DNA of 64,000 nt from a virus. This document shows positions 4,335 through 31,208 of this stretch, one piece after another. How positions within the stretch are numbered: position 1 is the stretch's first letter; each line of letters starts with the position of its first letter. The notes beneath the pieces are model-generated. The model was not told the origin of the DNA. It searched no databases and saw only the letters and a list, made by a program, of their open reading frames with translations. The position numbers and the translations under genes are program-made. The stretch is from the IMG/VR virus record IMGVR_UViG_3300021964_012561, positions 1 through 64,000 of that record. One strand, given 5' to 3'.

Positions 4335-6266
4335 ATGTTCTCGCAAAGCGTGTTTGAGACCAAGAAAAATAGAAATAAATATGAATTTCAAGAAGCAGAT
4401 GTTATCTTTGTGGCTGATCTATTCACTGATGAATACTCTGGTGGTGCTGAGCTTACCACAGAAGCATTGTTTGGAACTAGCCCCTATAAAACCTATAAGC
4501 TTAAATCAAGTGAACTAACAGAACAACTGGTTCAACAAGGTGTTAATAAAACTTGGATCTTTTTTAACTTTTCACAAATGAATTTAAACTTAATCCCACA
4601 GATCGTAGCAAATCTTTATTATTTTATAACAGAATATGATTATAAGTTTTGTCGTTATCGATCGATAGAATTGCATAAAAAAGAAACAGGAGAAGAATGC
4701 AATTGCCACGATTCAGATTATGGTAAATTTATTTCATCTTTTTTTGCCGGCTCTGAAAAAATCTTTTGGATGTCTGACCAGCAAAAAGAAAGGTATCAAG
4801 AAAGATTTCCATTTTTAACAGACGAAAAATCGATACGATTGACTTCAGTTTTTTCTGTAGAAGATTTAGAATTTATTGAAAAATTAAGAATTGAAAAAAG
4901 TGAAAAAAATAACAAAAAATGGGCGATTATAGGTTCTAACTCCTGGATTAAAGGAATCGAAGAAACAAAGCAAAAACTTGAGGCTTTCCTACCAGAAGAA
5001 TATGATTACGATATATTGTCCAGCCTAGATTATAAAAGTCTCTTAAGAAAACTTTCTGAATACGAAGGATTATGCTTTATGCCTTTGGGTGGTGATACAT
5101 GCCCAAGAATAGTAATTGAGGCAAACTTATTAGGTTTAGAGCTTTATATTAATGATAATGTTCAACACACCTCCGAAGAATGGTGGGGTGGGACCTCTGA
5201 TGAAATTGAATCTTATCTTCTTGACGGACATAAACGTTTTTGGGACGAGATTGAACGACATTTAAACAGAGAAATAAAATTAAGTGGTTATACCACAATC
5301 AAAAATGTAATCTCTAGTGATTATCCTTGGAAACAGAGTATTAAATCTCTTTTAGGTTTTTGTGATGAAGTTGTAGTTCTTGATGGTGGCTCTGATGACG
5401 GATCTTATAAAGAGTTGCTTAAGTGGTCAAAAGAAGAACCAAAACTAGTAGTAAAACAAATTAAAAGAGATTGGAATAATCCTCGTTTTGCAATGTTTGA
5501 CGGTGCAAATAAGGCAATCGCAAGAACATTGTGTACAGGAGAGTGGTGTTGGCAACAAGATGTTGATGAAATTGTTCATGAAGATGATTACCAAAAAATC
5601 AAACCATTGATTAGGCAAATGCCAAAAGCATTAAAATTACTATGCCTACCAGTAATCGAGTATTGGGGATCGAATAAAAAAGTAAGAGTAGATGTTAATC
5701 CTTGGAAATGGAGGTTGAGTAGAAATGATACCCACATTACACATGGGATTCCAGCAGAACACCGAAGGTATGATCAAGACGGAAATGTTTTTTCAATAGG
5801 TTCAGACGGTTGTGATTATGTACACAATGACAATTATCAACCTATACCACATTCAACTTTTTACACACCAGAATTACATCAAGTAAGATTGCAAGCACTA
5901 TCAGGAGATGAAAAAAGTTTAAGTGTTTATGAAAATTATTTAAATCAAGTTGTAAACCAATTACCTGGTGTGTACCATTATTCGTGGTTTGATATAAAAA
6001 GAAAAATCTATACTTATAAAAATTATTGGTCGAAACATTGGACTTCAATGTACAACAAGTCAATAGAAGACACACCAGAGAATAACATGTTTTTTAACAA
6101 AAAATGGTCTGATGTATCAGATGAAGAAATTAGAAACCTAGCTATAAAAATGGAAGAAGAATTAGGAGGCTGGGTTTTTCATCAAAAAATTGATTTTTCT
6201 AAACCTACTCCTTGGATAACAATTAACCGATCAGAACCTGATCTATCTCAAGAATGGACAAAATAA
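4335..6266 (+). CDS. Two-domain glycosyltransferase (GT-B/GT4-like N-term + GT2 C-term)
   Basis: N-term GGAE and DTCPRIVIEA (GT4-like). C-term DEVVVLDGGSDDGS and QQDVDE (GT2 DxD). GGAGG RBS upstream. Confidence 0.8.
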   Translation: MFSQSVFETKKNRNKYEFQEADVIFVADLFTDEYSGGAELTTEALFGTSPYKTYKLKSSELTEQLVQQGVNKTWIFFNFSQMNLNLIPQIVANLYYFITEYDYKFCRYRSIELHKKETGEECNCHDSDYGKFISSFFAGSEKIFWMSDQQKERYQERFPFLTDEKSIRLTSVFSVEDLEFIEKLRIEKSEKNNKKWAIIGSNSWIKGIEETKQKLEAFLPEEYDYDILSSLDYKSLLRKLSEYEGLCFMPLGGDTCPRIVIEANLLGLELYINDNVQHTSEEWWGGTSDEIESYLLDGHKRFWDEIERHLNREIKLSGYTTIKNVISSDYPWKQSIKSLLGFCDEVVVLDGGSDDGSYKELLKWSKEEPKLVVKQIKRDWNNPRFAMFDGANKAIARTLCTGEWCWQQDVDEIVHEDDYQKIKPLIRQMPKALKLLCLPVIEYWGSNKKVRVDVNPWKWRLSRNDTHITHGIPAEHRRYDQDGNVFSIGSDGCDYVHNDNYQPIPHSTFYTPELHQVRLQALSGDEKSLSVYENYLNQVVNQLPGVYHYSWFDIKRKIYTYKNYWSKHWTSMYNKSIEDTPENNMFFNKKWSDVSDEEIRNLAIKMEEELGGWVFHQKIDFSKPTPWITINRSEPDLSQEWTK

Positions 6267-6277
6267 AGAGGCGATAA

Positions 6278-6991
6278 ATGAAAGTAGTTTTTATAATACC
6301 GATGTTCAATGCAGCACCGCACGTTGGAGAATTAGTAAAGTCATTACAAGATCAAAAAAATACTAATTGGGAAGCCGTAATTATTGACGACATGTCAGAA
6401 GACGATACTATTTTTATGGTTAATCATGCCGTAGGAAATGATGAAAGATTTAAATTTATTGTCAATAAAGAAAAAAAATATGCACTTAAAAACGTAGTTG
6501 AAAATTCAATTAATACCGCCAAAGAAAAAAATTGTATCATTGCAATTTTAGATGGAGATGATGCGCTTTGCAATGAAGACACTGTTGATCTTATCTTAAG
6601 TGCTTATAAAGATGACGATGTAGGTACAGTTTGGACAGCTCATAAATGGGACATTAATAATATGAACATTTCAAAAGATTTACCTGATAACATTAGGGTT
6701 AACCCTTATGAATACCCGTGGGTATCTTCTCATTTAAAAACTTTTAGATCTAATTTAATTTTAGAAATCAATAAAGAAAATTTTAAAGACATCGATGGTA
6801 ACTGGTTTAAAAGAGGCTATGATCAAGCATTGTATTTGCCGTTAATGTATCTAAGCATTAAAAGAGTTTTTATACCTGAAGTTTGTTATCTTTATCGCAT
6901 AAATTCTAATTCAATGAAACATAGAGAATGGAAAGAGCAAGATCAATTAAGTACAGTCAAACTTATTAGAGCAAGAGGTTTTATAAAATGA
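6278..6991 (+). CDS. GT2 glycosyltransferase
   Basis: IIPMFNA, IIDDMSEDDT, ILDGDD, YLYR motifs. Confidence 0.9.
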   Translation: MKVVFIIPMFNAAPHVGELVKSLQDQKNTNWEAVIIDDMSEDDTIFMVNHAVGNDERFKFIVNKEKKYALKNVVENSINTAKEKNCIIAILDGDDALCNEDTVDLILSAYKDDDVGTVWTAHKWDINNMNISKDLPDNIRVNPYEYPWVSSHLKTFRSNLILEINKENFKDIDGNWFKRGYDQALYLPLMYLSIKRVFIPEVCYLYRINSNSMKHREWKEQDQLSTVKLIRARGFIK

Positions 6992-7341
6992 AACCAAAGA
7001 TAATTAAAAAGCCTTGGGGATGGGAAGAGATATGGGCAGACATTCCAGGCAAGTACCTTGGAAAAACAATCAATATTAATATGAAAGAAAGGCTTTCACT
7101 TCAGTATCATGAAAAAAAAGACGAAACAATTTATGTGATGAGAGGTGTACTAGTACTCTACATTAAAAACAAATATACAGAAAGTGTTAAAAAAATTGAT
7201 TTAGGCCCAGGCCAGTGTTATCACATACCTGCAAAAACAATACATAGATTTTCTGCAGAAAAAGGAGACGTTGCAATTTGTGAAGTAAGCACTTATTATC
7301 CAGATGATGTTGTTAGATTAGAGGATGATTATAATAGATGA
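6988..7341 (+). CDS. Cupin, mannose-6-phosphate isomerase type II-like
   Basis: KPWG, LSLQYHEKKDE, IPAKTIHRF, DVVRLEDDY. Confidence 0.8.
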   Translation: MKPKIIKKPWGWEEIWADIPGKYLGKTININMKERLSLQYHEKKDETIYVMRGVLVLYIKNKYTESVKKIDLGPGQCYHIPAKTIHRFSAEKGDVAICEVSTYYPDDVVRLEDDYNR

Positions 7342-8294
7342 AATACAAAATTTTAATGATTGGAAAACCTGGTGGCAATTTAGTAAGAACATATGACTGG
7401 CACATTAAAGCATTAAATAATGATAGTCAAAAAAGATATCAGGTAGATTGTATTCATTCACTTGGAAACAAAGTTAACTTAGCTGATTATAACATTTTTT
7501 GGTTTTATGCAAAAGCATTTCAGCCTCAACTATATCATACTATAAAACAGCTAATGCCTCATTCAAAGACAATTTTTGGGCCTAATATTTTACTTGATAA
7601 ACCTGACTTAGGGCCTAGTGATGAATGGGACAATTGGTATATTAATCATTGTAATCCTGACATACATTTGGATCAAGTTGCATTTTATTCTGATCATGTC
7701 AATAAATTTTTAAGAGAAGATGTCAGAAAAACTTCTAGGTGTCTTAATAAATGTATTGAATTAGATGACAACTTATATAAGCCGGATACAAAAAAAATAT
7801 ATGATTGTTTAATTTATTCCAAAAAAAGAAGATATGATGTAAATTTTGAGGATTTTAGATACGAATTATTGCTTTTGTTAGAAAAAAATAACATTAAATT
7901 TTGTGAAATACCTGCAGGAAAATTTGGCAAATACGAAAGAAAAGATTATTTTGATTTACTAAATAAATCAAAAGTTACTGTTAATTTAAGCTTAGACGAA
8001 TGTCCAGGCATTTTAAATTATGAATCAATGTTTTTAAACGTACCTGTCATAGGTTCACCTCACAATGTTCCAATAACTTCTGCTAAGGCACTTCATGTAT
8101 TAAATACAGACGAAATGACATCAAAATACTTAGTTAGAAAAAAATCAGCTGCAGAAAAATACTTTAAAAAAATTAAAGCATTCTTGTCAGGAGAAATAAA
8201 ATTAGAATCAAATCACAGAGAATGGGTGCTGAAAGAAACTAGTTTTAAAAAATATTGTGATCGTCTTGAAAACTTAATTAAAGAGGTAAAATGA
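7338..8294 (+). CDS. Putative GT-B glycosyltransferase
   Basis: C-terminal ECPGILNYESMFLNVPVI resembles the GT4 E-x7-E motif; glycan-cluster context. Confidence 0.65.
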   Translation: MKYKILMIGKPGGNLVRTYDWHIKALNNDSQKRYQVDCIHSLGNKVNLADYNIFWFYAKAFQPQLYHTIKQLMPHSKTIFGPNILLDKPDLGPSDEWDNWYINHCNPDIHLDQVAFYSDHVNKFLREDVRKTSRCLNKCIELDDNLYKPDTKKIYDCLIYSKKRRYDVNFEDFRYELLLLLEKNNIKFCEIPAGKFGKYERKDYFDLLNKSKVTVNLSLDECPGILNYESMFLNVPVIGSPHNVPITSAKALHVLNTDEMTSKYLVRKKSAAEKYFKKIKAFLSGEIKLESNHREWVLKETSFKKYCDRLENLIKEVK

Positions 8295-9298
8295 TTAATT
8301 TAAATTTTTTAACTTCTAACACAAATATTAACAGAGGATCATACAGAATCTGGGTTCATGACATTAATAATCTATTGATTGAAAATGAAGAGATTAATTC
8401 TAAGATAGTAACTAATTCTAAAAAAATTGATAAAAATTGTGATGTTATTATCTTAGGAAAGTCGTGCTATAAAAACGTGGACTTAATAAAAAAAGAACAC
8501 CCAACAAAAATCATAGGCGCAATTAATATAGATGCTGATTTTAAAAACAAAAACATAGACTTTGTTATAGTAGGTTCTATCGAAGAATATACCAGTATGT
8601 CTTTTTATGAAAATGTTTTTATCGTTGATTTAATTGAAGAAAAATTTATGAAAGTTCCGATAAAAAATCATGTTGATAAAAATAATCTAGTACTTGGTTA
8701 TCATGGGCATCACCCACATCTATTTAAGTTTTTCCCATTTTTAAAATCAGCAATTGAAAACATTAACAAAGAAATAGATTTAACTTTAAAAGTAATAATT
8801 GGTGATAAAAACTTTAATTGGCAGCATGGAAAACCTGAAATTGATAATTTAGAAATTCTTTATTATGATGAAATCAACGTAAGTGAAACAATTAAAACAT
8901 TTGACGTAGGCATTGTTCCTAATGTTTTAGATATGAGAGTTTTTGATAGTTTTAATCAAATTGCAAATTTTAAAAATTTAGAAATAGGAATCAACACAAC
9001 AGATTATTTTTTAAGATTTAAAAACAAAACGAACCCAGGGCGTGCTTATGTTTTTTATCAACATGGAATTCCAGTAATACATGACTTAAGCCCAAGTAGC
9101 TACGCTTTCATGCAAGAAGCAGGTTTATATTCTTGTGCACATGATGCTGAATCTTGGGAAAAAGAAATTAAAAATTTTATAGACTATAAAAATAGAAATA
9201 AACACGCAAAATCTTTCTATGAAATTTTCCATAAAAAATTCAATAAAGAAAATAGAACTAATAATTTTGTAAATGCAATTAAAAGTTTAATAAAATAA
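8291..9298 (+). CDS. Putative GT-B glycosyltransferase
   Basis: GSYRI start, LGYHG, FDVGIVP, KTNPGR, GIPVI: divergent GT4-like pattern. Confidence 0.6.
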   Translation: MINLNFLTSNTNINRGSYRIWVHDINNLLIENEEINSKIVTNSKKIDKNCDVIILGKSCYKNVDLIKKEHPTKIIGAINIDADFKNKNIDFVIVGSIEEYTSMSFYENVFIVDLIEEKFMKVPIKNHVDKNNLVLGYHGHHPHLFKFFPFLKSAIENINKEIDLTLKVIIGDKNFNWQHGKPEIDNLEILYYDEINVSETIKTFDVGIVPNVLDMRVFDSFNQIANFKNLEIGINTTDYFLRFKNKTNPGRAYVFYQHGIPVIHDLSPSSYAFMQEAGLYSCAHDAESWEKEIKNFIDYKNRNKHAKSFYEIFHKKFNKENRTNNFVNAIKSLIK

Positions 9299-9313
9299 AA
9301 AAAAGAGGTACAA

Positions 9314-10078
9314 ATGAACAAAATAGCAGAAAAAGGTTATCTTTATATTGCCTATGGTGAAGCTTTTACTAAAGAAGCATTAATGTCAATAGAATCTTTA
9401 AGAAGATACACTGACTTACCTATTGCAATTTACACAGATCAAAAAGATTTAGCAGAAGAAAAAAAAGATAAATTAAAAATTACTTTAATCGGTCAAATTG
9501 TTGCAAAACACTTAAGGGCAAAAGTAGATTATATGGATCAATCTCCATTCATAAATACGGTATTTATGGATTCTGATACTGTGGTTGTAAGAAATTGCGA
9601 CGACATGTTTGCTCTTTTAGAAAGATTCGATGTTGCAATTGTAAATGATTATGCAAGAAAAAGATTGAAATATTCAAAAATAGTTCCGGAATATGGTGAA
9701 ATTCCTTATGCTTTTTCTGAGGCAAATAGTGGTGTAATTGCTTTTAACAGTTCTACAAGAACAGATACTTTTCTTAAAATGTGGAAAGAGTATTTTTATA
9801 AGTACTATCAGCAAACAAACGGCTGGGATCAAGTAAGTTTTAGAATATCTTTGTGGAAAAGCAATGTAAGAATTCACCACATGCCTTTTGAATACAATGT
9901 CAGAAGCGCCGCAAATAGAGAAAAACAAAATCATTACAAAAGAGAATTTGGCGAAGATCATATGGAGTCAAGGATTATTCACATACATTACGATAATGAA
10001 ATACATAAAGGTATCTATAAAATTGATGACGTTGATGAGCTTGAAAGAATTGTAAAAGAAAAAGCTGTGGTATACTAA
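9314..10078 (+). CDS. GT-A glycosyltransferase (GT8/nucleotide-diphospho-sugar transferase-like)
   Basis: GYLYIAYG, FMDSDT (DxD), NSGVIAF, WDQVSFR, EYN, IIH. Confidence 0.75.
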   Translation: MNKIAEKGYLYIAYGEAFTKEALMSIESLRRYTDLPIAIYTDQKDLAEEKKDKLKITLIGQIVAKHLRAKVDYMDQSPFINTVFMDSDTVVVRNCDDMFALLERFDVAIVNDYARKRLKYSKIVPEYGEIPYAFSEANSGVIAFNSSTRTDTFLKMWKEYFYKYYQQTNGWDQVSFRISLWKSNVRIHHMPFEYNVRSAANREKQNHYKREFGEDHMESRIIHIHYDNEIHKGIYKIDDVDELERIVKEKAVVY

Positions 10079-10079
10079 A

Positions 10080-10817
10080 ATGACCAATATTTTACAAGAT
10101 CTTTTTGAAAACAAGAAAGTTGCATTAGTAGGTCCTGCAAAGTATATGACCAACTTGCCGCTAGGAAAAGAAATTGACAGTCATGATACAGTTGTTAGGA
10201 TTAATAGATCTTGGGAGTCTATTAGCAGTCATAACAAGAGCATAGGTAGTAGAACAGATGTATTATATTCCTGCTTGATTGAAAAACCGGCAAATGCAGG
10301 AGAAATAAATGTTGAAAAATATGTTGAAAATAACATTAAGTTAGTTTGCGCACCTCCAGCATCTAGCATGAAAGGATTGTCAAACGAAACAAGATTTCAC
10401 GATTTAATTGACATAGAAAAAATTGAAAAATTAAATCAAAAAATACCTGTCAGATTAGTTGATCATCATTTTCATAATGCCTTGGCATATAAAGTAGATT
10501 GCCGACCTAACACAGGATTTGTAGCCATTTATGACATCTTAAGAATGAATCCAAAATTTTTATCAATTTATGGTTTTAGTTTTTACTTAGATGGTTTTAT
10601 TCCCGGTGTTAAGAAAGGAATAATAAACGAACAAAATAAAACTGAAGCTGAGTTTGCAAATCAATGCTTTAATTCAAAGCGCCACGTCCAAAAAAATATG
10701 TGGCAATTTGCTAAAGAAACGCTTTTAAACAATGAAAAAGTAAATTTAGATTCTCAGTTAAAGATTATTTTAGAGTTGGAAAGATTAGACAAAAGCCTTT
10801 ATGAAAAGAAAAAATGA
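10080..10817 (+). CDS. GT29 sialyltransferase-like glycosyltransferase
   Basis: Sialylmotif-L-like VALVGPA..LGKEIDSHDTVVRIN..GSRTD, motif-S-like PNTGFVAI..LSIYGFSF, and a downstream His. Confidence 0.75.
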   Translation: MTNILQDLFENKKVALVGPAKYMTNLPLGKEIDSHDTVVRINRSWESISSHNKSIGSRTDVLYSCLIEKPANAGEINVEKYVENNIKLVCAPPASSMKGLSNETRFHDLIDIEKIEKLNQKIPVRLVDHHFHNALAYKVDCRPNTGFVAIYDILRMNPKFLSIYGFSFYLDGFIPGVKKGIINEQNKTEAEFANQCFNSKRHVQKNMWQFAKETLLNNEKVNLDSQLKIILELERLDKSLYEKKK

Positions 10818-11464
10818 TTATTTTTATTCCAATCAAAGAAGAATCTCAAAGAGTTCCTAATAAAAACTTTAGAAAGATTAACGGAATAGAACTTTATAAA
10901 AATTTATTATATAAACTTACTAATCATAAAGTTTTTATAGATACTGACAGCAATAAGATTATAGATGCTGTTAAAAATGACAAAAAACTTAAAAATGTTT
11001 GTACTTACAAAAGAAAACAACATTTGCTTGGCCATGAAGTTTCTGTTTGTGACTTAATTGAAAATTTTATTATTGAAAAATCTATGCATAATAAATCAAT
11101 CTGTCAAATACATGTAACATCGCCATTTATAAAAGAAAAAACATTAACAACAGCATTTAATAAGTTTAAATCTGGATATGATTCTATTGTTTCTTGTAAC
11201 ATATATCAAAATAGACTATGGCGTAAAGAAAAATATGGATATTGCCCAGTTAATCATAACCCGATTAAACTAGAACAAACTCAAGACCTGCCTAAATTTT
11301 ATGAAGAAAATTCTTTATTTTACATGTTTCAGGCAGATAAATTTTTAAAAACAAAATCAAGGATCGGAAATAATCCGTATTTTTATGCATGCAATTTTCC
11401 AGAAAATATTGACATAGACACAGAAGACGATTGGAGTATTGCTAAAACTATCGCAGGAGAATAG
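10814..11464 (+). CDS. Acylneuraminate/ulosonate cytidylyltransferase (NeuA/KdsB family)
   Basis: IPIKEESQRVPNKN, IDTDS, HVTSPF, QTQDLP, YEENS, DIDTEDD. Confidence 0.9.
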   Translation: MIIFIPIKEESQRVPNKNFRKINGIELYKNLLYKLTNHKVFIDTDSNKIIDAVKNDKKLKNVCTYKRKQHLLGHEVSVCDLIENFIIEKSMHNKSICQIHVTSPFIKEKTLTTAFNKFKSGYDSIVSCNIYQNRLWRKEKYGYCPVNHNPIKLEQTQDLPKFYEENSLFYMFQADKFLKTKSRIGNNPYFYACNFPENIDIDTEDDWSIAKTIAGE

Positions 11465-12154
11465 ATGAAATTAATGTGGCAGCAAATCCCATCAACAGTC
11501 ATATCAGAAATTTTATGCATTAACGACACAGATGGCGTAGTAATAGATACAGAGCATGGCTGTTTTAACACGGAGACACTTTATTCTTGCATACAAGTTG
11601 TTACATTACACAAAAAAGAATGTTTCATCAGATTAACAGAAGTCAACAAGACATTAATTAGAGCCTGTTTGGATGCAGGCTGTACTGGTATTATTTTTTC
11701 AACTGTTGAAAATGTTGAAGACGCTAAAAAAATACATGAATGGTGTAAATTTCCATCCATTGGCGGTAAAAGAGGTTTAGGGTTAGTTCGAGAAAACAAG
11801 TGGGGTCTTGATAAAAATTTAATTAGTAATCCTCCAAAATTAATTGCTCAAATTGAAACAATAGAAGGCGTCGAAAACATCAAAGAAATTTCTTCTTTCC
11901 CTTTTGATTTTTACATGATAGGCCCTTATGATCTATCAGCAAGTGCTGGTGATCCTGGAAATTTTGAAAATGAAACTTTCAAGGATTCAATTAAAAAAGT
12001 GAGGAAAATAATACCAGACAATAAAATGGCAGTTCACATACCAAAAAACATTAAAAAAGAAATGAAAAATTATAAAAATTATGGTATGATTGCTTTAGGA
12101 ATGGATACAACTTTTTTAATTGAAAAGTGCAAGGAAATTGAAAAATATGCTTAA
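11465..12154 (+). CDS. HpcH/HpaI class II pyruvate aldolase
   Basis: VIDTEHG, LDAGCTG, GKRGLG, IAQIET, IGPYDLSAS. Confidence 0.9.
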   Translation: MKLMWQQIPSTVISEILCINDTDGVVIDTEHGCFNTETLYSCIQVVTLHKKECFIRLTEVNKTLIRACLDAGCTGIIFSTVENVEDAKKIHEWCKFPSIGGKRGLGLVRENKWGLDKNLISNPPKLIAQIETIEGVENIKEISSFPFDFYMIGPYDLSASAGDPGNFENETFKDSIKKVRKIIPDNKMAVHIPKNIKKEMKNYKNYGMIALGMDTTFLIEKCKEIEKYA

Positions 12155-21093: not shown

Positions 21094-21111
21094 TTCAAAA
21101 AGGAATAAAAA

Positions 21112-22344: not shown

Positions 22345-23044
22345 AATTGGTGTTTTTGCTTATAACTGGCCTCACCTTAAAACTCAGCAAGGATTAATTA
22401 ATATGTGTATGTCAGGATTTAAACCTGAGATTGTTTTTGGTGCCGACCCAGTAGAATTAAAGTTTTATAAATCAAAAATTAGAATAACACCTAAAGATTT
22501 GTATTTACACAATACTAAAGATATATGTGAATTTTACAACATACCCTATGTTGTTGTCAAACATAACAGCAAAGAATGTATGGAATTAATAAAAGAAAAT
22601 AAATTAGACTTAGGAGTAATTTTAGGGGCAAGAATTTTAAAAAAATACATTATTGATTCTTTTAAAGTTGGCGTAATTAATGCGCATCCCGGTTTATTGC
22701 CTGAAAATAGAGGTTTAGATACAATTAAGTGGGCAATAATCAAAGGGCTGGACCAAGGTGTTACTTGTCATTTTGTTGATCATAAAATAGACATAGGTAG
22801 AGAAATTGTAAAAGAAAAAATAAATGTTTATAATGATGATACATTAATTGACATTTACTTAAGAATACAGGCAAAAGAACAAAAAATGATAATTGATTCA
22901 TTAAAAAAAGTTATGCACAATAAAGATTTACATTCTTTTAAAAAGTTGACAACTGGAAACAATTACCATAAATCAGTTCCGCCTGACTTAGAAGAAAATT
23001 TGTTTGATTATTTTGTTAAGTATAAAAGTAATTATGGAGAATAA
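22331..23044 (+). CDS. Formyltransferase
   Basis: INAHPGLLPENRG, GVTCH, IDIG. Confidence 0.85.
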   Translation: MIKNKIGVFAYNWPHLKTQQGLINMCMSGFKPEIVFGADPVELKFYKSKIRITPKDLYLHNTKDICEFYNIPYVVVKHNSKECMELIKENKLDLGVILGARILKKYIIDSFKVGVINAHPGLLPENRGLDTIKWAIIKGLDQGVTCHFVDHKIDIGREIVKEKINVYNDDTLIDIYLRIQAKEQKMIIDSLKKVMHNKDLHSFKKLTTGNNYHKSVPPDLEENLFDYFVKYKSNYGE

Positions 23045-23848
23045 ATGCCCCAGATTATAAGAGACATTTTTGAAAATTACGTAAAAGAAAGATTTGATTT
23101 AAAAGATTGCATAGCAGTAAATAATGGAACAAGTGCTTTAATTGCACCCCTATGGTCAATGGAACTAAATCCTGAAGATGAAATAATTACAACACCATTT
23201 ACATTTATTGCAACTTCAAATGCAATAATAATCGCCGGTGGTAAGCCAGTTTTTGTCGACATTGATCCTAAAACTTACCTTATTGATCCGGAAAAAATTG
23301 AAGCTGCGATTACAAAAAATACAAAAGCAATTATGCCTGTTCATTTGTACGGCAGAGTTTGCGACATGGAAAAAATTAATGCTATAGCTGAAAAACATAA
23401 TTTAGTTGTAATAGAAGATACGGCACAAGGATTTGGAGCAACATGTCACTGTGGGAAACATGCAGGAATGATGTCAGATGCAGGAACTTTTTCATTTTAC
23501 AAAACAAAAAACATATCAACATTCGAAGGTGGAATGATTTGCATTCCAAAAAGTTCCAAGCTAGATGCAAAAAAAATAAGATCAATTTGCAATCAAGGTC
23601 AAGACGGTAGGTATAATCATGTTCATATTGGTTTTAATTTTAGGTTGGCTGAACCTCTTTGCCTCATGGCATATGAACAAATAAAGCTTCACATGACAGG
23701 TATCAAGGCAGAGCTAGGCATTCGAGGACCTAAACAAGGACATTATCCTAACGTAGTTTATGAACAACCTATTTACAAGAAAAAAGGAATAACAGGAAAT
23801 TGTCCAATTGCAGAAAAAGTTGCTAAAAAAATTAGGGAAAACATTTAA
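23045..23848 (+). CDS. DegT-family aminotransferase (short, WbpE/WlbC-like)
   Basis: NNGTSAL, TTPFTFIAT, IMPVHLYG, IEDTAQ, SFYKTK, EGG. Confidence 0.88.
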   Translation: MPQIIRDIFENYVKERFDLKDCIAVNNGTSALIAPLWSMELNPEDEIITTPFTFIATSNAIIIAGGKPVFVDIDPKTYLIDPEKIEAAITKNTKAIMPVHLYGRVCDMEKINAIAEKHNLVVIEDTAQGFGATCHCGKHAGMMSDAGTFSFYKTKNISTFEGGMICIPKSSKLDAKKIRSICNQGQDGRYNHVHIGFNFRLAEPLCLMAYEQIKLHMTGIKAELGIRGPKQGHYPNVVYEQPIYKKKGITGNCPIAEKVAKKIRENI

Positions 23849-24540
23849 TGTCAATTGTAGGAATACATCAACCAAACTTCATGCCTTGGATAGGTTATTT
23901 TAAAAAAATCTCAGAGAGTGACAAGTTTATTTTTTTAGACAGTGTCAAATGTTCAAAAAATTCTTATTTTAACAGAAATAAATTTTCAACATCAAAAAAA
24001 TTTGACAATTCTTTTTGGCTTTCTTGCCCAATTAAAAAAGATTCATACAAAAAAAATTTATCTGATGTTGTTTCAAGTTCTGAGTTTTTACAAAAGCATG
24101 TAAGACATTTAAAAATGAGACATTCAAAAACAAAAGAGTCAGAATATTTTAAAGAAATTATAGAGACATACAGTAAATTTAGTGCTAATGATCATTTTAA
24201 AGTTGCAGATTTTAATATAGAAATTATAAAACTAACATGCAGCTTTTTAGATATTAAAACAAAATTTTTTTTATCATCTTCGATTGATCATGATCAATCT
24301 AAATCCAAGCAATTATTATTAATAGAATTGATTAAAAGACTAGAAGGTAAAAAATATATGTCTGGGACAGGAGCAAAAGCTTATCAACAAGATGATCTTT
24401 TTTTAAAAGAATCAATTAATTTACAATATTGCAAAAACGTTAAAAATAAGTCTATTTTAATCAATGAAGAAAATGTCAGCATGATTGATTTAATTTTACA
24501 CTTTGGGTTAGATAAATGCAAAAAGATGATTTTAGCTTAA
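23848..24540 (+). CDS. wbqC: WbqC family protein (putative glycyltransferase)
   Basis: IHQPNFMPWIGYFKKI..SDKFIFLD, NRN, YMSGTGAKAY, SMIDLI. Confidence 0.88.
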   Translation: MSIVGIHQPNFMPWIGYFKKISESDKFIFLDSVKCSKNSYFNRNKFSTSKKFDNSFWLSCPIKKDSYKKNLSDVVSSSEFLQKHVRHLKMRHSKTKESEYFKEIIETYSKFSANDHFKVADFNIEIIKLTCSFLDIKTKFFLSSSIDHDQSKSKQLLLIELIKRLEGKKYMSGTGAKAYQQDDLFLKESINLQYCKNVKNKSILINEENVSMIDLILHFGLDKCKKMILA

Positions 24541-25157
24541 AAAATTATAAAAGATGCCTAGAAAAATCTATATCACTAGGTTATAATTTTTTCACATTAG
24601 ATGACTATTTCAACAATAAAGACATGTCAGATAAAAAAATAATTTTGCGTCATGACGTAGATACACAACTTGATATTGCTTTAGAAATGTCAGAAATTGA
24701 AAAAAACTTAAACGTTAGTTCTACATATTTTATAAGGATTCACTCTCATTCTTACAACCTTTTATGCATCAAAGATCTTTCAAAAATTAAAAAATTAATT
24801 AAAAATTCTCACGAGGTTGGTTTTCATTATGAGTCTGATTTTTATTTGTTGAACAACAAAAGCATTAACAAGTCTATTGATCTTGAAATTTCTTTAATAG
24901 AATATTTTTGCAACATAAAAATCAAAACAATTTGCCCACATGAACCAACAAGAACAAATTGTTTTGATTTAGAAAATGTTAGTTACAATCAAGCTTACGA
25001 TAGCAATCTTTTAAAACAATATAAATACATATCAGATAGTAGCTGTAGATGGAGAGATGGTTCTTTTTATGAAAATATTTGTGCCGGACACAAAAATTTG
25101 TATATTTTAACGCACCCTTATTGGTGGTATAATAATTCACCTATTGAAAACTATTGA
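24516..25157 (+). CDS. Polysaccharide deacetylase-like (WbmS-like)
   Basis: ILRHDVD, STYF, HEVGFH, YISDS, LTHPYWW. Confidence 0.8.
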   Translation: MQKDDFSLKNYKRCLEKSISLGYNFFTLDDYFNNKDMSDKKIILRHDVDTQLDIALEMSEIEKNLNVSSTYFIRIHSHSYNLLCIKDLSKIKKLIKNSHEVGFHYESDFYLLNNKSINKSIDLEISLIEYFCNIKIKTICPHEPTRTNCFDLENVSYNQAYDSNLLKQYKYISDSSCRWRDGSFYENICAGHKNLYILTHPYWWYNNSPIENY

Positions 25158-25163
25158 GGTAAT

Positions 25164-26171
25164 ATGAACAATAATGTTGCAATAATCGGCTGTGGGGCGA
25201 TTTTTAATAGACATGTAGAGTCAATAATAAATACACCTAATTTTAATTTAGTCGCAGTTTGTGATTCTCAAAAAGAAATAGCTGACAATAAATCAAAAAA
25301 ATATAATTGTTCTGCTTTTTATTCTATAGAAGAATGTTTAAAAAAAAGTAATGCAAATTTTTATGTTTTAGCGACGCCAAATAATTTGCATTACAAACAT
25401 GCAGTAATGTGTATAAATTCAGGAAAGAAAGTTTTAATTGAAAAACCTGCAACATTAAATGTTAGGCAATTAGAAGAAATAATTAAATTGTCCAATGATA
25501 AAAAAGTTGATGCATATGGAGTTTTGCAAGTAAGATTAAATAATTCAGTAACAGTTGTTAAAAAATGTCTAGAAAAAGGATTGCTAGGTAAGTTAAGAGG
25601 TGTAAATCTTGTACAACGCTGGCAAAGGCCTGTTGAATATTTTAGCGGCTGGAGATCTATTCCTGACGTCGGAGGAGGAACTTTGCACGAAGTAGGAATT
25701 CACTACGTAGATATATTGCAATATTTAGTCGGCGTACCTAAAGTTATTGCTTCTTCAGCTTATAACACTAAACATGTAGATGCTGACATAGAGGACACTG
25801 TATACTCACTCATTGATTATAAAGAATTTGGAGGTACGATAGAAGTAACAATTTCAGCAGAGCCTCATAATTTAGAGTGTTCTATCTCCATTTTAGGTTC
25901 TAATGGTTTTATAAAATTAGGCGGAAAAGCTCTAAACTTAGTCGAAAGTTACAATTTCTTAAGCCATGGTGCAAAAAAACAATTTGAATCAATTATGAGT
26001 AATCATGAAAACGTTACTTACATACCTCCTAACAATTACGGGTCCTATCTTGGTTCGTGTCCAAATCACTTAGGTGTGTATCAAAATTTAAACATGTTTA
26101 AGTTAGAAAATACAAAAAACTCTCTCCAGATTATTGAAAATATTTATGAAAAATTAGGAAAAAAGTATTAA
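25164..26171 (+). CDS. Gfo/Idh/MocA oxidoreductase (WbpB/WlbA-like sugar 3-dehydrogenase)
   Basis: IIGCGAI, ATPNNLH, IEKP, QVRLN, WQRP..YF, GGG, IHYVD, NLECSISILG. Confidence 0.88.
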   Translation: MNNNVAIIGCGAIFNRHVESIINTPNFNLVAVCDSQKEIADNKSKKYNCSAFYSIEECLKKSNANFYVLATPNNLHYKHAVMCINSGKKVLIEKPATLNVRQLEEIIKLSNDKKVDAYGVLQVRLNNSVTVVKKCLEKGLLGKLRGVNLVQRWQRPVEYFSGWRSIPDVGGGTLHEVGIHYVDILQYLVGVPKVIASSAYNTKHVDADIEDTVYSLIDYKEFGGTIEVTISAEPHNLECSISILGSNGFIKLGGKALNLVESYNFLSHGAKKQFESIMSNHENVTYIPPNNYGSYLGSCPNHLGVYQNLNMFKLENTKNSLQIIENIYEKLGKKY

Positions 26172-26194: not shown

Positions 26195-27034
26195 ATGACA
26201 AATAAAACATTCCCTACAGACAAGCCGCACATATCATTTTCAGAAATTAAAGTTTGGAAAGAATGCCCATACAGGCATAAATTAACATATGTTGATAAAA
26301 TCGATATGTTTGAAGACAGCCCATATCTTCATTTTGGAACAGCTGTTCACGAAGGTTGTGAGAGGTTAATAGAGGGTACTGAGCTCGATCGTAATAAAAT
26401 CATAGGTGTAATGAAAGAAAGCTGGCAGAAAGCTGGTTTTGAAAACCCTGCATGGTATTCTAAGCAACCTGGTTGGTATAAACATGAACCGGTTTCAACT
26501 TGGGAAACTTGGGCAAATAATATGTGGGATGAAGTAATAAATTTTCTAAATGCTGAATTTCCTGGTTGGGAATGCCTTAAGGCAGAAGAAGAACTTTATG
26601 AAAAAATTAAAGATTTAGATGTTGATCTTTCTTTCAAAGGATTTATCGACGGTGTTCTTAAAGTTCCTAAAAAAAGAGGTAAAGGTCATGAATATTGGAT
26701 TATCGATTGGAAAACAGCAGGAGCATGGGGATGGCGAAGAGATAAAAAACAAGACTTAGGAATGACAGCACAGCTAATTCTGTATAAACATTTTTGGGCT
26801 AAGAAGCACGGTATCGATTTAAAAGACATCCGTTGCGCATTTATTTTACTAAAAAGAGGTGCAAAACAAGGAAAAGTTTGTGACATTGTAAAAGTATCAG
26901 TTGGTCCAAAAACTTACGAAAAAGGTCTAAAGCTAATGAGAAGCATGATTAAAACAACTAGTAAGGGCATGTTTCTTAAAAATAGAAACAGTTGTACATT
27001 TTGTCCATATAAAGGTACGGAGCATTGCAAATGA
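26195..27034 (+). CDS. PD-(D/E)XK exonuclease, Cas4/AddB-like with Fe-S cysteines
   Basis: ISFS..ECP, GTAVH, GFID, IIDWKT, QLILY; C-term CTFCPY..HC. Confidence 0.88.
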   Translation: MTNKTFPTDKPHISFSEIKVWKECPYRHKLTYVDKIDMFEDSPYLHFGTAVHEGCERLIEGTELDRNKIIGVMKESWQKAGFENPAWYSKQPGWYKHEPVSTWETWANNMWDEVINFLNAEFPGWECLKAEEELYEKIKDLDVDLSFKGFIDGVLKVPKKRGKGHEYWIIDWKTAGAWGWRRDKKQDLGMTAQLILYKHFWAKKHGIDLKDIRCAFILLKRGAKQGKVCDIVKVSVGPKTYEKGLKLMRSMIKTTSKGMFLKNRNSCTFCPYKGTEHCK

Positions 27035-27450
27035 AAAAGAAAAGAAACTGGGCTAAAAATAGGGAAATATTAAAATCAATTCCTAATCCTTCAAAAGAAG
27101 CTTATGAAATTAAAATGAAAGTTCCTGAATTAACTTTTGAAGGCTGCAGAGGTCAACCTGATTTTGCGCATCTATACATTACTTTTTATCCTAGCGACAA
27201 AGTTATAGAATTAAAATCTCTCAAAGAATACTTTTTTGCATTTCGAAGTCAAATTTATTCATATGAGCGCATAATTAATGTAATATATGACGACATGATG
27301 TCAGCATACGAACCTACAAGACTAAGATTGGTTATGGTTTGCAATCCTCGAGGCGGTATTTCATCAAAACTTACTGTTGATTCTGACTGGGGTGTTAGAG
27401 GCGGAAAGGACCAATTTAAAGATTGGGTAGGTCAACAAGAGGAATGGTAA
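27031..27450 (+). CDS. queF: QueF-like T-fold protein (type I), atypical active site
   Basis: GQPDFA, QueF motif ELKSLKEY, PRGGI; ATG overlaps the upstream stop (ATGA). Confidence 0.8.
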   Translation: MKKKRNWAKNREILKSIPNPSKEAYEIKMKVPELTFEGCRGQPDFAHLYITFYPSDKVIELKSLKEYFFAFRSQIYSYERIINVIYDDMMSAYEPTRLRLVMVCNPRGGISSKLTVDSDWGVRGGKDQFKDWVGQQEEW

Positions 27451-27687
27451 TTGGCGGAAAAGAAAGATAAATACCCAGACAATGTTAGTGGTAAATTTTA
27501 CGTAGATAAGGAATGTATTTTTTGCAATGTATGTGCGAATGCAGCTCCTAACAACTTTAAAATTAGTGATGATGGCACCCATGATGTTGTCTATAAGCAA
27601 CCTCAAAATGAAGAAGAAGAAGACGAATGCTACGAAGCTTTAGAACTATGTCCTGTCTATGCCATAGGTGACGACGGAGAAGAATAA
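27451..27687 (+). CDS. Single-cluster 4Fe-4S ferredoxin
   Basis: FYVDKECIFCNVC..AP ... CPVYAIG; acidic. Confidence 0.9.
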   Translation: MAEKKDKYPDNVSGKFYVDKECIFCNVCANAAPNNFKISDDGTHDVVYKQPQNEEEEDECYEALELCPVYAIGDDGEE

Positions 27688-27742: not shown

Positions 27743-28990
27743 ATGCAGAAAAAATTAAAAGTTTTAGTTCTGTCTGATCATGCTTTGTCCACTAGTGGCG
27801 TAGGTACTCAGACTAGGCATTTACTAAACGGTCTTATAGAGAAAGGTTGTTGGTCGTTTCGACAATTCGGCGCCGCAATGAAACATTCAGATTACAATAC
27901 GGTTGTCATTAATGAAGATTTTATAATCAAGCCTATTGACGGCTTTGGAAATCCAGAAATGTTAAGAGTTGCGCTAGCAACAGAAAAACCTGATGTATTG
28001 TTTATTTTCACAGATCCAAGATTTTTTGTTTGGCTTTTTGAAATGGAAGATGAAATTCGTCAAATATGTCCTATAGTTTGGTGGCACGTATGGGATAATT
28101 ACCCATATCCTGAATTTAATGATGCCTTTTATGAATCAACAGATTTGATAAATTGTCATTCACACATGACTTATGAAATGATTAAAGGAAAGTTTCCCGA
28201 TAAAACTAACTGGATTCCGCATTCACTTCCGGAAAATTTATTTTTCCCATTAAAAGAAGAAGAAATTAAAAATTACAAAACACAACTATTAGGAAAAGAT
28301 AGGGAAGATCATTTTGTTGGCATTTGGGTAAATAGAAATGCTAAACGTAAAAGACCTAACGATGTTTTGGAATCATGGTCATTGTTTTTGAAAGATCTAA
28401 AGAGAAAAAAAGGACACAAAAAAGCAACGCTAATCATGCACACAGAACCCACAGATAACGAAGGTCCTAATTTATTTAGAACAGCTGAAATGTTAGGAAT
28501 AGAAAATAATGTCTTTTTCTCTAGAGACCGTCTGGAGTTTGAAAAAATGAACGTTTTGTACAATATATCAGACTTTTGCCTAAATATATCTTATGCAGAA
28601 GGCTTCGGTCTTTCTACGTTAGAAAGTATGATGACTGCCACCCCTATTGTCGCAGCAAAAACAGGCGGTCTGACAAAGCAAGTTTGGAACTCTAAAACAA
28701 AAAAAGCTAACGGTGTAGCGCTAGACATTGATTTAAAAACACTTGTAGGTAGTCAAACTGTTCCTTATATATATGAGGACTATGTTTCTAGTCAAACTAT
28801 TGCAGCTGGCATAATGAAGCTTTACAAAATGAACAAAAAAGAAAAAACTCGATTAAGTAAACAGGTTTTAAGTTATGCAAGAGAAACGTTTAATCATCAA
28901 AATACAATTGATCAATGGCATAATACAATGTTAAAAACGCATAAGAAATTTAAAGAAAATAAACAAAAATGGAATCTAATAGAAATTTAA
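27743..28990 (+). CDS. GT4 glycosyltransferase
   Basis: TSGVG, NRNAKRK, AEGFGLSTLESM, TGGL. Confidence 0.9.
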   Translation: MQKKLKVLVLSDHALSTSGVGTQTRHLLNGLIEKGCWSFRQFGAAMKHSDYNTVVINEDFIIKPIDGFGNPEMLRVALATEKPDVLFIFTDPRFFVWLFEMEDEIRQICPIVWWHVWDNYPYPEFNDAFYESTDLINCHSHMTYEMIKGKFPDKTNWIPHSLPENLFFPLKEEEIKNYKTQLLGKDREDHFVGIWVNRNAKRKRPNDVLESWSLFLKDLKRKKGHKKATLIMHTEPTDNEGPNLFRTAEMLGIENNVFFSRDRLEFEKMNVLYNISDFCLNISYAEGFGLSTLESMMTATPIVAAKTGGLTKQVWNSKTKKANGVALDIDLKTLVGSQTVPYIYEDYVSSQTIAAGIMKLYKMNKKEKTRLSKQVLSYARETFNHQNTIDQWHNTMLKTHKKFKENKQKWNLIEI

Positions 28991-29000
28991 GGAGAAAATT

Positions 29001-30161
29001 TTGAGAATACTTTTAAGAGCTCCCCTTTTGACTTCAAGTGGTTATGGGGTTCACGCCAGACAAATTTTTGAAGCTGTGGAATCAATCGACGGCGTCGAGC
29101 TAGATGTAGAGTGCCTAAATTGGGGAAAGACTCCTTGGTTGCTCAATCAAGAAACAAACGAAGGACTCATTGGAAGAATTATGAGTCATTCAAGAAAAAT
29201 TAAACCACCTTATGACTTGTCAATACAGGTACAACTACCAGATGAATGGGATTCAAGTTTTGCAAGAAAAAACATTGGAGTGTCTGCAATTGTTGAAACT
29301 GATCGCTGTAATCCTTCATGGATAGAATCATGCAATAAAATGGACTTGGTAGTAGTTCCATCTGAATTCACTAAAGGCGTAATTAAAAAATCAGGTGTTG
29401 TTACAACAAATATTGAAGTTGTACCTGAATGGTTTAATCAGTACATAATAAATGATGATTTAAGATTAGACAAAGAAATAGATTTAAAAACCGAACATAA
29501 TTTTCTAATCTTAGGTCAATTAGGCGCAATGAACGCCGATGATGATAGAAAAAATATTTACAAGACTATCAAGTGGGTTGCAGAAAACTTTAAAAATAGA
29601 GATGATGTTGGCATTATTATAAAAACCAACATGGGAAAGAATACTAAAATTGACAAAAAATTAACACAAAACATTTTAAATCAAATGAAAAATCATTTTA
29701 AAGATTCAAAAGTAAAATTGTATTTAATTCACGGAACGATGACAGATCAAGAAATTGCTGCTCTTTACAGGCATAAAAAAATTAAATGTTTAGTGTCAGC
29801 TACAAGAGGGGAGGGATACGGTTTACCTCTAATCGAAGCAGCAGCATCAGGAATGCCAATCATTGTAACAAACTGGTCTGGCCACTTAGACTTTTTACAA
29901 AAAATTAATTTCTTGGCTGTTGATTATGACCTTAAAGAAATTAACGAATCTCGCGTTGATAATAGAATATTTTTTCCAGGTTTTCGATGGGCTGAGCCAA
30001 AAGAAGAAAGTTTTAAGAAAGCTCTCAGCAAATTAATTAATGATTTTGAAACTTTTAAAAATTTAGCAGAAAATGAAAAGAAAGTTATAATTAAAGAATT
30101 TTCAAAAGAAAATATAATTAATACTTATAAAGAATTAATTAAGAAATGTTTAAGTTGCTAG
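29001..30161 (+). CDS. GT4 glycosyltransferase
   Basis: SGYG, VVPSEF, DRKN, GEGYGLPLIEAAASG; TTG start with GGAG RBS. Confidence 0.9.
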   Translation: MRILLRAPLLTSSGYGVHARQIFEAVESIDGVELDVECLNWGKTPWLLNQETNEGLIGRIMSHSRKIKPPYDLSIQVQLPDEWDSSFARKNIGVSAIVETDRCNPSWIESCNKMDLVVVPSEFTKGVIKKSGVVTTNIEVVPEWFNQYIINDDLRLDKEIDLKTEHNFLILGQLGAMNADDDRKNIYKTIKWVAENFKNRDDVGIIIKTNMGKNTKIDKKLTQNILNQMKNHFKDSKVKLYLIHGTMTDQEIAALYRHKKIKCLVSATRGEGYGLPLIEAAASGMPIIVTNWSGHLDFLQKINFLAVDYDLKEINESRVDNRIFFPGFRWAEPKEESFKKALSKLINDFETFKNLAENEKKVIIKEFSKENIINTYKELIKKCLSC

Positions 30162-31206: not shown

Positions 31207-31208
31207 AA

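Follow-up and report, generated by a model that had tools for sequence, protein, structure and literature searches.

A conserved glycosyltransferase backbone and a hypervariable sugar cassette in Far-T4-type jumbo phages

Organization of the glycan locus

The window analyzed here, the first 64 kb (64,000 nucleotides) of a single 114,636-bp viral record in IMG/VR (IMGVR_UViG_3300021964_012561), carries a dense set of sugar genes at positions 4335–30161, which the original prediction had described as an O-antigen-scale pathway of about 28 consecutive glycan genes. This region contains 32 open reading frames (ORFs), 28 of which are glycan-related or of unknown family. From 4335 to 26171, 26 genes on the + strand abut or overlap, all gaps between them being shorter than 35 bp, and 22 of the 26 were placed in sugar-nucleotide, tailoring, or glycosyltransferase families by Pfam, NCBIfam, and the ESM Atlas. 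The other four are 7338–8294 (a sub-threshold match to glycosyltransferase family 1, GT1), 13124–14179, 24516–25157, and 15776–16483 (a weak sulfotransferase-like match). Together with two GT4 genes at 27743–30161, these genes give the predicted count of 28; however, they are not strictly consecutive, as a nuclease gene (26195–27034), a QueF-like gene (27025–27450), and an ORF of 78 amino acids (aa) intervene.

The approximately ten glycosyltransferases that had been predicted correspond to nine genes with ten domains when family searches are combined with Atlas leads; these genes start at 4335 (two domains), 6278, 7338 (weak), 8291, 9314, 10080, 21112, 27743, and 29001. The types represented are two GT2-type, one GT-A Nucleotid_trans, one GT29-like, two GT4, and one weak GT1, and two further GT-B candidates are visible through the ESM Atlas only (8291, and 21112 by Atlas structure). 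Similarly, the abundance of nucleoside diphosphate (NDP)-sugar tailoring enzymes is evident from the Pfam and NCBIfam families detected.

In a Kyte-Doolittle hydropathy scan (19-residue window, segment threshold 1.6), no ORF in 4335–30161 shows even one hydrophobic segment, and the contig of 114.6 kb encodes no multi-pass protein other than a tape-measure-like protein of 1463 aa. The transmembrane check suggested for these ORFs therefore agrees with the expectation that they lack multi-pass segments. The reported absence of Wzx, Wzy, an ATP-binding cassette (ABC) transporter, WaaL, and an undecaprenyl-phosphate transferase also held, since the region encodes no multi-pass protein and Bac_transf, the family of the initiating phosphoglycosyl transferase (WbaP/WecA type), has no match in the genomes G000–G003. 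Moreover, the membrane parts of a Gtr seroconversion cassette (the GtrA flippase, the bactoprenol glucosyltransferase GtrB, and the membrane transferase GtrC) were not found by hydropathy in the region or on the contig. The contig, which represents approximately 28% of the genome according to CheckV, has no match to NTP_transferase (sugar-1-phosphate nucleotidyltransferase) and no dehydratase or epimerase of the short-chain dehydrogenase/reductase (SDR) type, in agreement with the predicted lack of RmlA/RmlB-type entry enzymes.

The contig has a GC content of 32%, and 98 of its 100 ORFs share one strand. PHROG matches on it include a large terminase (TerL, 68623–70245), a gp20-like portal (70256–72316), a gp23-like major capsid protein (77196–79166), a baseplate hub, gp25-like and gp6-like wedge proteins at 33668–36024, UvsX, a gp32-like single-stranded DNA-binding protein, and a gp46-like SbcC; the capsid and terminase genes proposed as a check are thus both present. 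The capsid protein is closest to the one encoded by Flavobacterium phage vB_FspM_immuto (hereafter immuto; 45.6% identity), whereas that of cyanophage S-SSM4 is at 31.7%; other near capsids belong to Microcystis phage Mel-JY01, Rhodothermus phage RM378, and uncultured huge phages. The nearest gp23-like capsid, gp20 portal, and gp17 terminase similarities assign the lineage to the RM378 group and not to the pelagimyophages or cyanomyophages, within the "Far-T4" neighborhood as defined by Roux et al. 2015 (PMC4360716). Judged from its terminase, portal, and capsid similarity, the contig is a real fragment of a Far-T4-type phage, a large uncultured marine relative of T4. Megablast of cultured phages with 30–50 kb of sequence gave no match.

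The 643-aa enzyme encoded at the start of the region was used to find related loci in IMG/VR (L series), and a 284-kb relative rated complete by CheckV (G002) was available. Proposed as a further check, synteny with related phages was found, as G002 is syntenic over most of the contig and more than 60 relatives from IMG/VR keep the backbone. A bacterial or chimeric origin of the contig was ruled out by this synteny and by the recurrence of the locus as a sugar island in more than 50 viral contigs.

When the contig ORFs are mapped onto the IMG/VR loci, a fixed order emerges: fiber-like paralogues, the 643-aa enzyme, a variable gap, the nuclease, GT4, GT4, three small or mid-sized genes, and the baseplate. 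The region is therefore not a single pathway of O-antigen scale, as had been proposed, and consists instead of a conserved transferase backbone and a hypervariable insert. Collectively, these results indicate that it is very probably a glycosylation system of two layers, cytoplasmic throughout, that belongs to a widespread Far-T4-type jumbo phage lineage, which is uncultured and very abundant.

The conserved transferase backbone

The backbone, comprising the 643-aa fusion, a usually present GT2 enzyme, and the GT4 pair, provides four to five transferase domains, in which the catalytic motifs are intact. The first core gene (4335–6266, + strand) encodes the 643-aa protein, which combines a GT-B/GT4-like domain (residues 19–312) with a GT-A/GT2 domain (approximately residues 314–640). 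Its AlphaFold2 (AF2) model has a mean confidence (pLDDT) of 90.2. The compact GT-B domain aligns with 6kih (sucrose-phosphate synthase; VIA Z 20.6), PglA (VIA Z 19.3), and WaaG (VIA Z 17.6). For the GT-A domain, the best matches are the glycocin S-glycosyltransferases SunS and ThuS (SunS VIA Z 14.9/13.7), accompanied by the teichoic-acid enzymes RmlT, TarS, and TarP; similarly, Foldseek returned SunS, RmlT, and TarS as the best matches. In 28 sequences, D254-x7-E262 of the first domain and D409-x-D411 of the second are invariant.

As a query of IMG/VR, the 643-aa enzyme recovered 67 loci at 40–71% identity, and its homologues form at least 2003 protein clusters, many of them from Tara and other marine samples; tblastn of cultured phages found nothing. 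In a more distant sub-lineage (L065–L072), the two domains are encoded individually, by genes that flank that of the nuclease. One homologue (L050:10001-11923) carries a single in-frame stop, for which a pseudogene, a sequencing error, or recoding are possible.

The near-core GT2 gene (6278–6991, + strand; Pfam Glycos_transf_2, E 2.8e-14) is the first gene of the variable island, and in 35 of 53 relatives, a homologue is located no more than 1.5 kb from the core transferase. On the other side of the island, the core GT4 pair (27743–30161, + strand) encodes proteins of 415 and 386 aa that match Pfam Glycos_transf_1 with E values of 3e-11 and 5e-11. Both keep the E-x7-E motif intact, with E286 and E294 invariant in one (A3) and the EGYGLPLLEA motif with its invariant E271 in the other (A4). 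The best PDB match of the first GT4 protein is B736L of chlorovirus NY-2A (E 3e-11), and orthologues of the pair occur in immuto (gp181/gp180), Mel-JY01, LR756508, and RM378.

Between island and GT4 pair, the core neighbor at 26195–27034 (+ strand) is a non-glycan gene for a Cas4/RecB-like PD-(D/E)XK nuclease with a four-Cys cluster (Pfam PDDEXK_1, E 3e-21). Its invariant residues are C24, C267, C270, C278, D152, D171-W-K173, and Q193..Y197, and its immuto orthologue is gp183. The nuclease forms the right border of the variable island and comes directly after the 643-aa transferase in L032 and L054. Proteins with a Cas4/RecB signature are usually recombination exonucleases. The nuclease adjoins transferases in three gene orders (in the window, in L065–L072, and at NC_055915 gp183), which may reflect functional coupling or old synteny.

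Next to the nuclease, 27025–27687 (+ strand) holds two further non-glycan genes, an orphan unimodular QueF-like gene (27025–27450; Pfam QueF, E 1.5e-21) and the 78-aa ORF. The QueF-like gene, lying between the nuclease and the GT4 pair, was found in the closest relative, L005, only. In immuto, deoxyguanosine (dG) in virion DNA is fully replaced by 7-(formylamino)methyl-7-deazaguanine (fdPreQ1), and deoxyadenosine (dA), deoxycytidine (dC), and thymidine (dT) are canonical (bioRxiv 10.1101/2023.04.13.536721). This finding would account for the presence of the QueF-like gene: the phage studied here probably has 7-deazaguanine DNA as well, with the gene as part of a pathway whose remainder lies off the contig.

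The variable island

In the present phage, the island spans 6278–26171 (19.9 kb) and can be divided into four modules downstream of the GT2 gene, all on the + strand. Module A (6988–10078) encodes a cupin sugar isomerase-like protein (6988–7341), the weak GT1 (7338–8294), a putative GT-B enzyme (8291–9298), and the GT-A Nucleotid_trans enzyme (9314–10078). As a lead only, the Atlas features of 8291–9298 reach 0.95–0.99 to virus-only clusters and to Glyco_trans_1_2 clusters.

Module B (10080–13124) resembles a 3-deoxy-2-ulosonic-acid pathway and encodes a GT29-like transferase (Pfam GT29, E 9e-8), a synthetase for cytidine monophosphate (CMP)-activated sugars that is PseF/KdsB-like (CTP_transf_3, E 2e-14), an HpcH/HpaI-type aldolase (HpcH_HpaI, E 2e-18), and a GmhA-like SIS isomerase. 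The NCBIfam matches to PseF (E 8e-19), HpaI (E 4e-25), and gmhA (E 4e-8) all lie under the equivalog cut-offs. The HpcH/HpaI-type (pyruvate) aldolase stands in place of the expected NeuB/KdsA-type synthase. Moreover, the GmhA-like isomerase has an extra, unassigned C-terminal half, and it is 67–72% identical in L040, L043, L051, and L053, whereas the neighboring genes are at 24–42%.

Module C (13124–21093) is of the NDP-3-amino-3,6-dideoxyhexose type. It begins with an unknown protein of 351 aa, a TcaB9-like NDP-hexose C-methyltransferase (Methyltransf_14, E 4e-49), a WbuC-like cupin, the sulfotransferase-like protein, and an FdtA 3,4-ketoisomerase (FdtA, E 4e-38), and it continues with a TIGR04325 methyltransferase (above the NCBIfam cut-off), an N-formyltransferase with a C-terminal dimerization domain (Formyl_trans_N and N_formyltrans_C; NCBIfam dTDP-4-amino-4,6-dideoxyglucose formyltransferase, E 6e-25), a 2-oxoglutarate (2OG)-Fe(II) oxygenase, a full DegT aminotransferase (E 8e-104), and a 309-aa DegT-like protein. 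Finally, module D (21112–26171) encodes the putative 410-aa GT-B enzyme (21112–22344), a second formyltransferase, a 267-aa DegT N-terminal form, WbqC, an unknown protein of 213 aa, and a GFO/IDH/MocA sugar 3-dehydrogenase-like protein (NCBIfam UDP-GlcNAc 3-dehydrogenase, E 1e-24, under the cut-off). The Atlas structure of the GT-B candidate gives TM scores of 0.60–0.64 to GT4 clusters.

Shortened DegT-family forms recur, namely, the 309-aa form with a divergent N-terminus (20164–21093), the 267-aa form with the N-terminal pyridoxal phosphate domain only (23045–23848; 76% identity in L034), and immuto gp172 (214 aa). These look like maintained variants and not pseudogenes. Based on the gene content, the cassette of this phage would supply a 3-formamido-3,6-dideoxyhexose-type donor, a sugar with a C-methyl group, and an ulosonic acid activated by CMP.

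Island turnover and solubility across relatives

The gap between the 643-aa enzyme and the nuclease has a length of 0 kb in L032 and L054 and measures 1.5 kb in L055, 3.7 kb in L061, 5–6 kb in L064 and L042, approximately 9.5 kb in L024 and L063, and 19.5 kb in G002. Pairs with a core identity of at least 95% share 100% of their island families; this share falls to 43% at 80–95% and to approximately 6% below 65%. Among 149 non-redundant island ORFs sampled from the relatives, the commonest Pfam families are sugar-related enzymes and methyltransferases. The sample includes GT2, GT1/4, GT6, and GT11 transferases, SDR dehydratases/epimerases with clear GDP-mannose 4,6-dehydratases among them, cupins, HldE-like kinase/cytidylyltransferase pairs, and UDP-glucose dehydrogenase. 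The GC content of the island follows that of the resident phage (29.6 vs. 32.3% here; 37.1 vs. 42.1% in G002), which indicates that the cassettes circulate in a phage gene pool and are not assembly artifacts.

The solubility seen in the window extends across the lineage. In approximately 60 relatives, two or more hydrophobic segments are present in only one of the 624 ORFs that lie downstream of the core enzyme, and in G002, all proteins with at least two predicted segments are 95–224 aa long, with none larger. Hydropathy of the contig, the 624 island ORFs, and G002 thus gave no candidate for the flippase, polymerase, ligase, or exporter of a Wzx/Wzy- or ABC-type locus, whereas the NDP-sugar tailoring enzymes and several glycosyltransferases typical of such loci are present. 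These observations show that the end-point of the pathway is cytoplasmic across the lineage. Furthermore, the complete genome G002 has no match to Bac_transf or NTP_transferase, and it encodes six SDR dehydratases/epimerases, four of which lie in its island. Because the entry nucleotidyltransferase is absent from both the contig and G002 and SDR tailoring is present, these phages appear to start from primary NDP-sugars of the host and then tailor them, in line with the view that host intermediates are taken.

Comparison with known systems

Hypervariable islands rich in glycosyltransferases have already been published for other T4-type marine phages, and virion glycosylation has been proven in mycobacteriophages; what this locus adds is a defined core and insertion point, at which the composition of the rare-sugar cassette is rapidly swapped. 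The closest parallel is the locus termed "host recognition cluster" in pelagimyophages and cyanomyophages (Zaragoza-Solas et al. 2020, PMC7029224; the lipopolysaccharide [LPS]-gene clusters of P-SSM2, S-SCSM1, and S-SCSM2R, PMC12801897). Similar to these T4-type marine phages, the present lineage has a large, non-syntenic island rich in glycosyltransferase and nucleotide-sugar genes at a fixed place near fiber or structural genes. In contrast to the clusters of PMC7029224, which belong to another lineage and whose authors favor modification of the host O-chain, the locus described here has a conserved backbone and a sharply bounded insertion point, and its island consists of sugar genes only, with no fiber genes.

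Virion O-glycosylation by mycobacteriophages Che8, Corndog, and Myrna (Freeman et al. 2023, as cited in PMC12619734 and PMC12801897) likewise employs soluble phage transferases encoded by virion genes, with glycans on the phage's own structural proteins. As far as the citing papers describe them, those systems comprise two to four genes, use host sugars, and occur on Actinobacteria, whereas 28 genes, rare sugars, hypervariability, and probable Bacteroidota hosts characterize the present one; the likeness is one of description. The Moraphages, which have four core transferase groups, were placed outside the T4 group by the paper describing them (PMC12619734).

Chlorovirus capsid glycans and the fibril sugar clusters of Megavirinae also depend on soluble transferases, bacterial-type pathways for rare sugars (formylated and amino-dideoxy), and clade-specific gene sets. 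However, the giant viruses infect eukaryotes, homology with them is limited to shared families, and their acceptor has been demonstrated. Among bacterial loci, those for the lipooligosaccharide (LOS) outer core of Campylobacter, Neisseria, and Haemophilus are soluble-only and hypervariable and often contain a CMP-ulosonic-acid module with a transferase. They differ in being chromosomal and in having transferases for heptose and for 3-deoxy-D-manno-octulosonate (Kdo) that act on lipid A-core, families that were not matched here.

The nearest cultured phage by capsid, immuto, has an orthologous nuclease-GT4-GT4 trio (gp183, gp181, and gp180; 28–32% identity), followed by a soluble sugar island of 8 kb. 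It lacks the 643-aa fusion enzyme, and the island is situated downstream of its GT4 pair, 22 kb away from the baseplate. This island is annotated, and we know of no discussion of it in print.

Candidate acceptors of the glycan

Our best single reading, which we hold tentatively and at slightly less than even probability, is that the system glycosylates the phage's own virion proteins in the cytoplasm. The conserved enzymes would start and extend a glycan on fiber, baseplate-periphery, and sheath proteins during assembly; the cassette would convert primary NDP-sugars of the host to rare donors, and its extra transferases would add them. In other words, swapping of the cassette would give each strain its own outer glycan, that is, a virion "serotype". 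The starter enzymes are 40–70% identical in phages of 32% and 42% GC, which points to a conserved acceptor, probably encoded by the phage; the GT-A domain of the fusion enzyme is nearest in fold to peptide S-glycosyltransferases (SunS/ThuS) and TarS-type enzymes.

As in the mycobacteriophage-type systems, soluble phage transferases are encoded beside virion genes. The GT4 pair continues with no gap of at least 35 bp into genes leading to the baseplate, and the 643-aa enzyme follows fiber-like genes. The fiber-like protein upstream of it (3–4259, + strand; 1418 aa, truncated by the contig start) has a C1q-like C-terminal domain (Pfam C1q, E 5.5e-6) and belongs to PHROG 15750 (function unknown), with no PDB match and no tandem repeats. 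It consists of 23% Ser plus Thr and 11% Gly and contains 19 [ST]G[ST] motifs vs. 8.8 expected, and its paralogues lie upstream of the 643-aa transferase in 14 of 46 relatives. The tail fiber assumed on this flank thus stands as fiber-like, by its C-terminal domain and composition only, and this protein is a candidate acceptor. The baseplate assumed on the other flank was confirmed by family matches to gp25-like (33668–34174, + strand) and gp6-like (34177–36024, + strand) wedge genes.

The same motif, a sequon-like candidate for the acceptor site and mainly present as hydrophobic-x-SGS, occurs 86 times vs. 32.4 expected in the structural proteins and 2 times vs. 4.7 in the island enzymes. The G002 orthologues of these proteins are also enriched (z 4–6.5), with approximately half of the positions shared. 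Similarly, the immuto tail region is enriched (45 vs. 18.8) and Mel-JY01 partly so (30 vs. 15.8), whereas the T4 structural proteins show no enrichment (12 vs. 14.7). A different motif, S-[G/A]-x-T, is not enriched here (28 vs. 21.8). Within the tail, baseplate, and fiber proteins, [ST]G[ST] is over-represented 3–7-fold in a subset, namely, 36024–41020, 57361–60935, 3–4259, and, beyond the window, contig positions 86454–87611. For the motif-richest ORF, at 57361, the AF2 model has a pLDDT of 59.6, a value too low for placing the motifs or for a fold search.

Several points weigh against virion proteins as the acceptor. In 120 homologues of ORF 57361, the conservation of motif Ser/Thr is 0.89 vs. 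0.76 for other Ser/Thr, which is not significant (p = 0.11); a cyanophage fiber is also mildly enriched in the motif (18 vs. 11.3), and [ST]G[ST] could be a feature of the fold. Similarity of GT-A and GT-B folds cannot identify acceptors. The T4 late promoter TATAAATA occurs 9 times vs. 11.9 expected and, without enrichment, carries no information on timing. In immuto, 22 kb separate the baseplate from the GT4 pair and island, which are surrounded by early-type small genes and lysis genes, and the GT4 gene of RM378 lies among replication genes; a link with virion genes is therefore not a general feature. As a result, the location between fiber and baseplate genes, which had been cited in support, holds as a location but loses weight as evidence. 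Likewise, the argument that the lack of membrane genes excludes a host-surface product was too strong, since LOS-type glycans, too, are assembled on lipid A-core by soluble enzymes only, with export left to the host's own machinery. Finally, we know of no report of a glycan on any Far-T4 virion, or of chemistry for any member.

A more specific form of virion glycosylation is possible but rather doubtful: Far-T4 jumbo phages may O-glycosylate tail, baseplate, and fiber proteins at Ser-Gly-Ser-type sites by means of a four-domain starter set and a swappable cassette. This would yield O-antigen-like scale and diversity and virion "serotypes", with a glycan coat under diversifying selection, for instance, as a ligand for glycan-binding proteins of the host surface or as a shield.

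Among the alternatives, remodeling of the host envelope survives best, although we consider it unlikely. On the cytoplasmic face of the inner membrane, the soluble enzymes would extend a lipid-linked acceptor of the host, either lipid A-core (as in LOS synthesis) or an undecaprenyl diphosphate intermediate, with export by host MsbA/Lpt or Wzx/WaaL; this is the published reading for analogous glycosyltransferase-rich clusters in pelagimyophages and cyanomyophages (PMC7029224, PMC12801897). All enzyme families found here are those of O-antigen, LOS, and capsule loci, and the immuto island lies among non-structural genes. LOS outer-core loci are generally known to be soluble-only and hypervariable, and an inner core conserved within the host phylum could account for the conserved starter enzymes. 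However, the heptosyl- and Kdo-transferase families GT9 and GT30 gave no match in the 32 ORFs at Pfam E values up to 0.01, and captured O-antigen loci should sometimes bring wzx or wzy, whereas, as described above, a single island ORF of 624 has two or more segments and large membrane proteins are absent from G002. Phages of very different GC content keep the starter enzymes, and, as a lead only, the nearest Atlas clusters of the two island ORFs compared are virus-only. An altered surface of the infected cell might, for example, block superinfection or prevent the loss of progeny on debris; a strain-specific masking glycan would be of little gain to a lytic phage.

Less probable still is another cytoplasmic product, such as a free or small-molecule-linked oligosaccharide, or the glycosylation of host proteins as a takeover device. 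The soluble-only gene set would suit such a product, and GT4 includes the small-molecule glycosylators BshA, sucrose-phosphate synthase, and TreT, and these figure among the closest matches in fold and sequence. In contrast, a 20-kb cassette swapped between close relatives fits poorly with one conserved target, and we know of no precedent.

Hypermodification of DNA or other nucleic acids, which had been named as an alternative, is the most improbable of these readings. The GT-B enzymes would glycosylate a modified base, the island would diversify the glycan, and the nuclease would destroy unmodified host DNA. T4-type phages are classic DNA glucosylators, diverse DNA glycans have been described (Pyle 2024; Lee 2025), the PD-(D/E)XK nuclease adjoins transferases in three arrangements with the QueF-like gene between it and the GT4 pair, and the Atlas features of ORF 21112 include a virus cluster with the T4 alpha-glucosyltransferase family (a lead only). 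However, nucleoside analysis of immuto virion DNA by liquid chromatography with ultraviolet and tandem mass spectrometric detection (LC-UV-MS/MS) gave dA, dC, dT, and fdPreQ1 with no glycosylated nucleoside (bioRxiv 10.1101/2023.04.13.536721), and this alternative is further weakened by the complete genome G002, since all known routes to glycosyl-DNA begin with either a homologue of thymidylate synthase or an oxygenase of the TET type and G002 has no match to the thymidylate-synthase family. One such match each, of unclassified kind, occurs in G001 and G003; a Tet_JBP search gave no match in G000–G003 and none in control genomes either and is thus uninformative. The TGT/DpdA family also has no match in G000–G003, although the Pfam model could miss DpdA3 owing to divergence, and the Fe-S signature of the nuclease is the one typical of recombination exonucleases. 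Ten transferase domains together with formamido and ulosonic sugars exceed any known DNA glycan.

T4-type phages of marine and fresh waters rank with the most abundant viruses. Mentions of "LPS-like" auxiliary genes in them go back to 2005, and, to our knowledge, no one has shown the recipient of the sugars. The present locus sharpens this question, as the end-point is cytoplasmic, the starter enzymes occur in thousands of environmental sequences, and only the cassette varies. If the virion is the acceptor, these tailed phages would bear glycan coats that are strain-specific and compare with the coats of giant viruses, with effects on adsorption, on the stickiness and decay of particles in the ocean, and on recognition by antibodies and lectins. 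Flavobacterium phage immuto and Flavobacterium sp. LMO8 form a cultured pair with the same core, in which the acceptor can be determined.

Flanking genes and additional observations

A 75-bp gap precedes the sugar operon and contains a terminator-like hairpin with a 13-bp stem and a T-run (4298–4329, + strand); this is one of just 21 intergenic gaps of at least 35 bp on the contig, which share no common motif by eye. Scans for sigma-70 promoters and terminators were at chance level, this hairpin excepted.

On the downstream flank (30171–36024, + strand), no gap of at least 35 bp occurs from the GT4 pair until 33623, and the genes for a 101-aa protein, a sigma candidate, and proteins of 115, 527, and 159 aa precede the baseplate genes. 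The sigma factor that had been predicted here is a weak gp55-like late sigma candidate of 251 aa (30451–31206, + strand). It stands on a weak colinear pairwise alignment to the gp55-like late sigma of S-SSM4 (26% over 125 aa, E 0.004), whereas Pfam, PHROG, and PDB gave no match. A homologue of this candidate lies three genes upstream of the immuto baseplate.

The 101-aa protein (30171–30476), directly after the GT4 pair, has one strong hydrophobic segment at its N-terminus (residues 3–21) and is the sole membrane-anchor candidate near the system; it is kept in L005, L032, L042, L054, L061, L064, and G002.

Two tail-sheath paralogues lie side by side on the contig (89549–92692, 1047 aa; 92726–96112, 1128 aa), and both are kept in G002. 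T4 has one sheath gene, encoding 659 aa. In Mel-JY01 (PP395634.1; L109), the part of the structural module that lies upstream of the terminase includes genes for an FkbM-type methyltransferase protein of 1226 aa (4750–8430) and a cytidylyltransferase-like protein of 640 aa (11243–13162).

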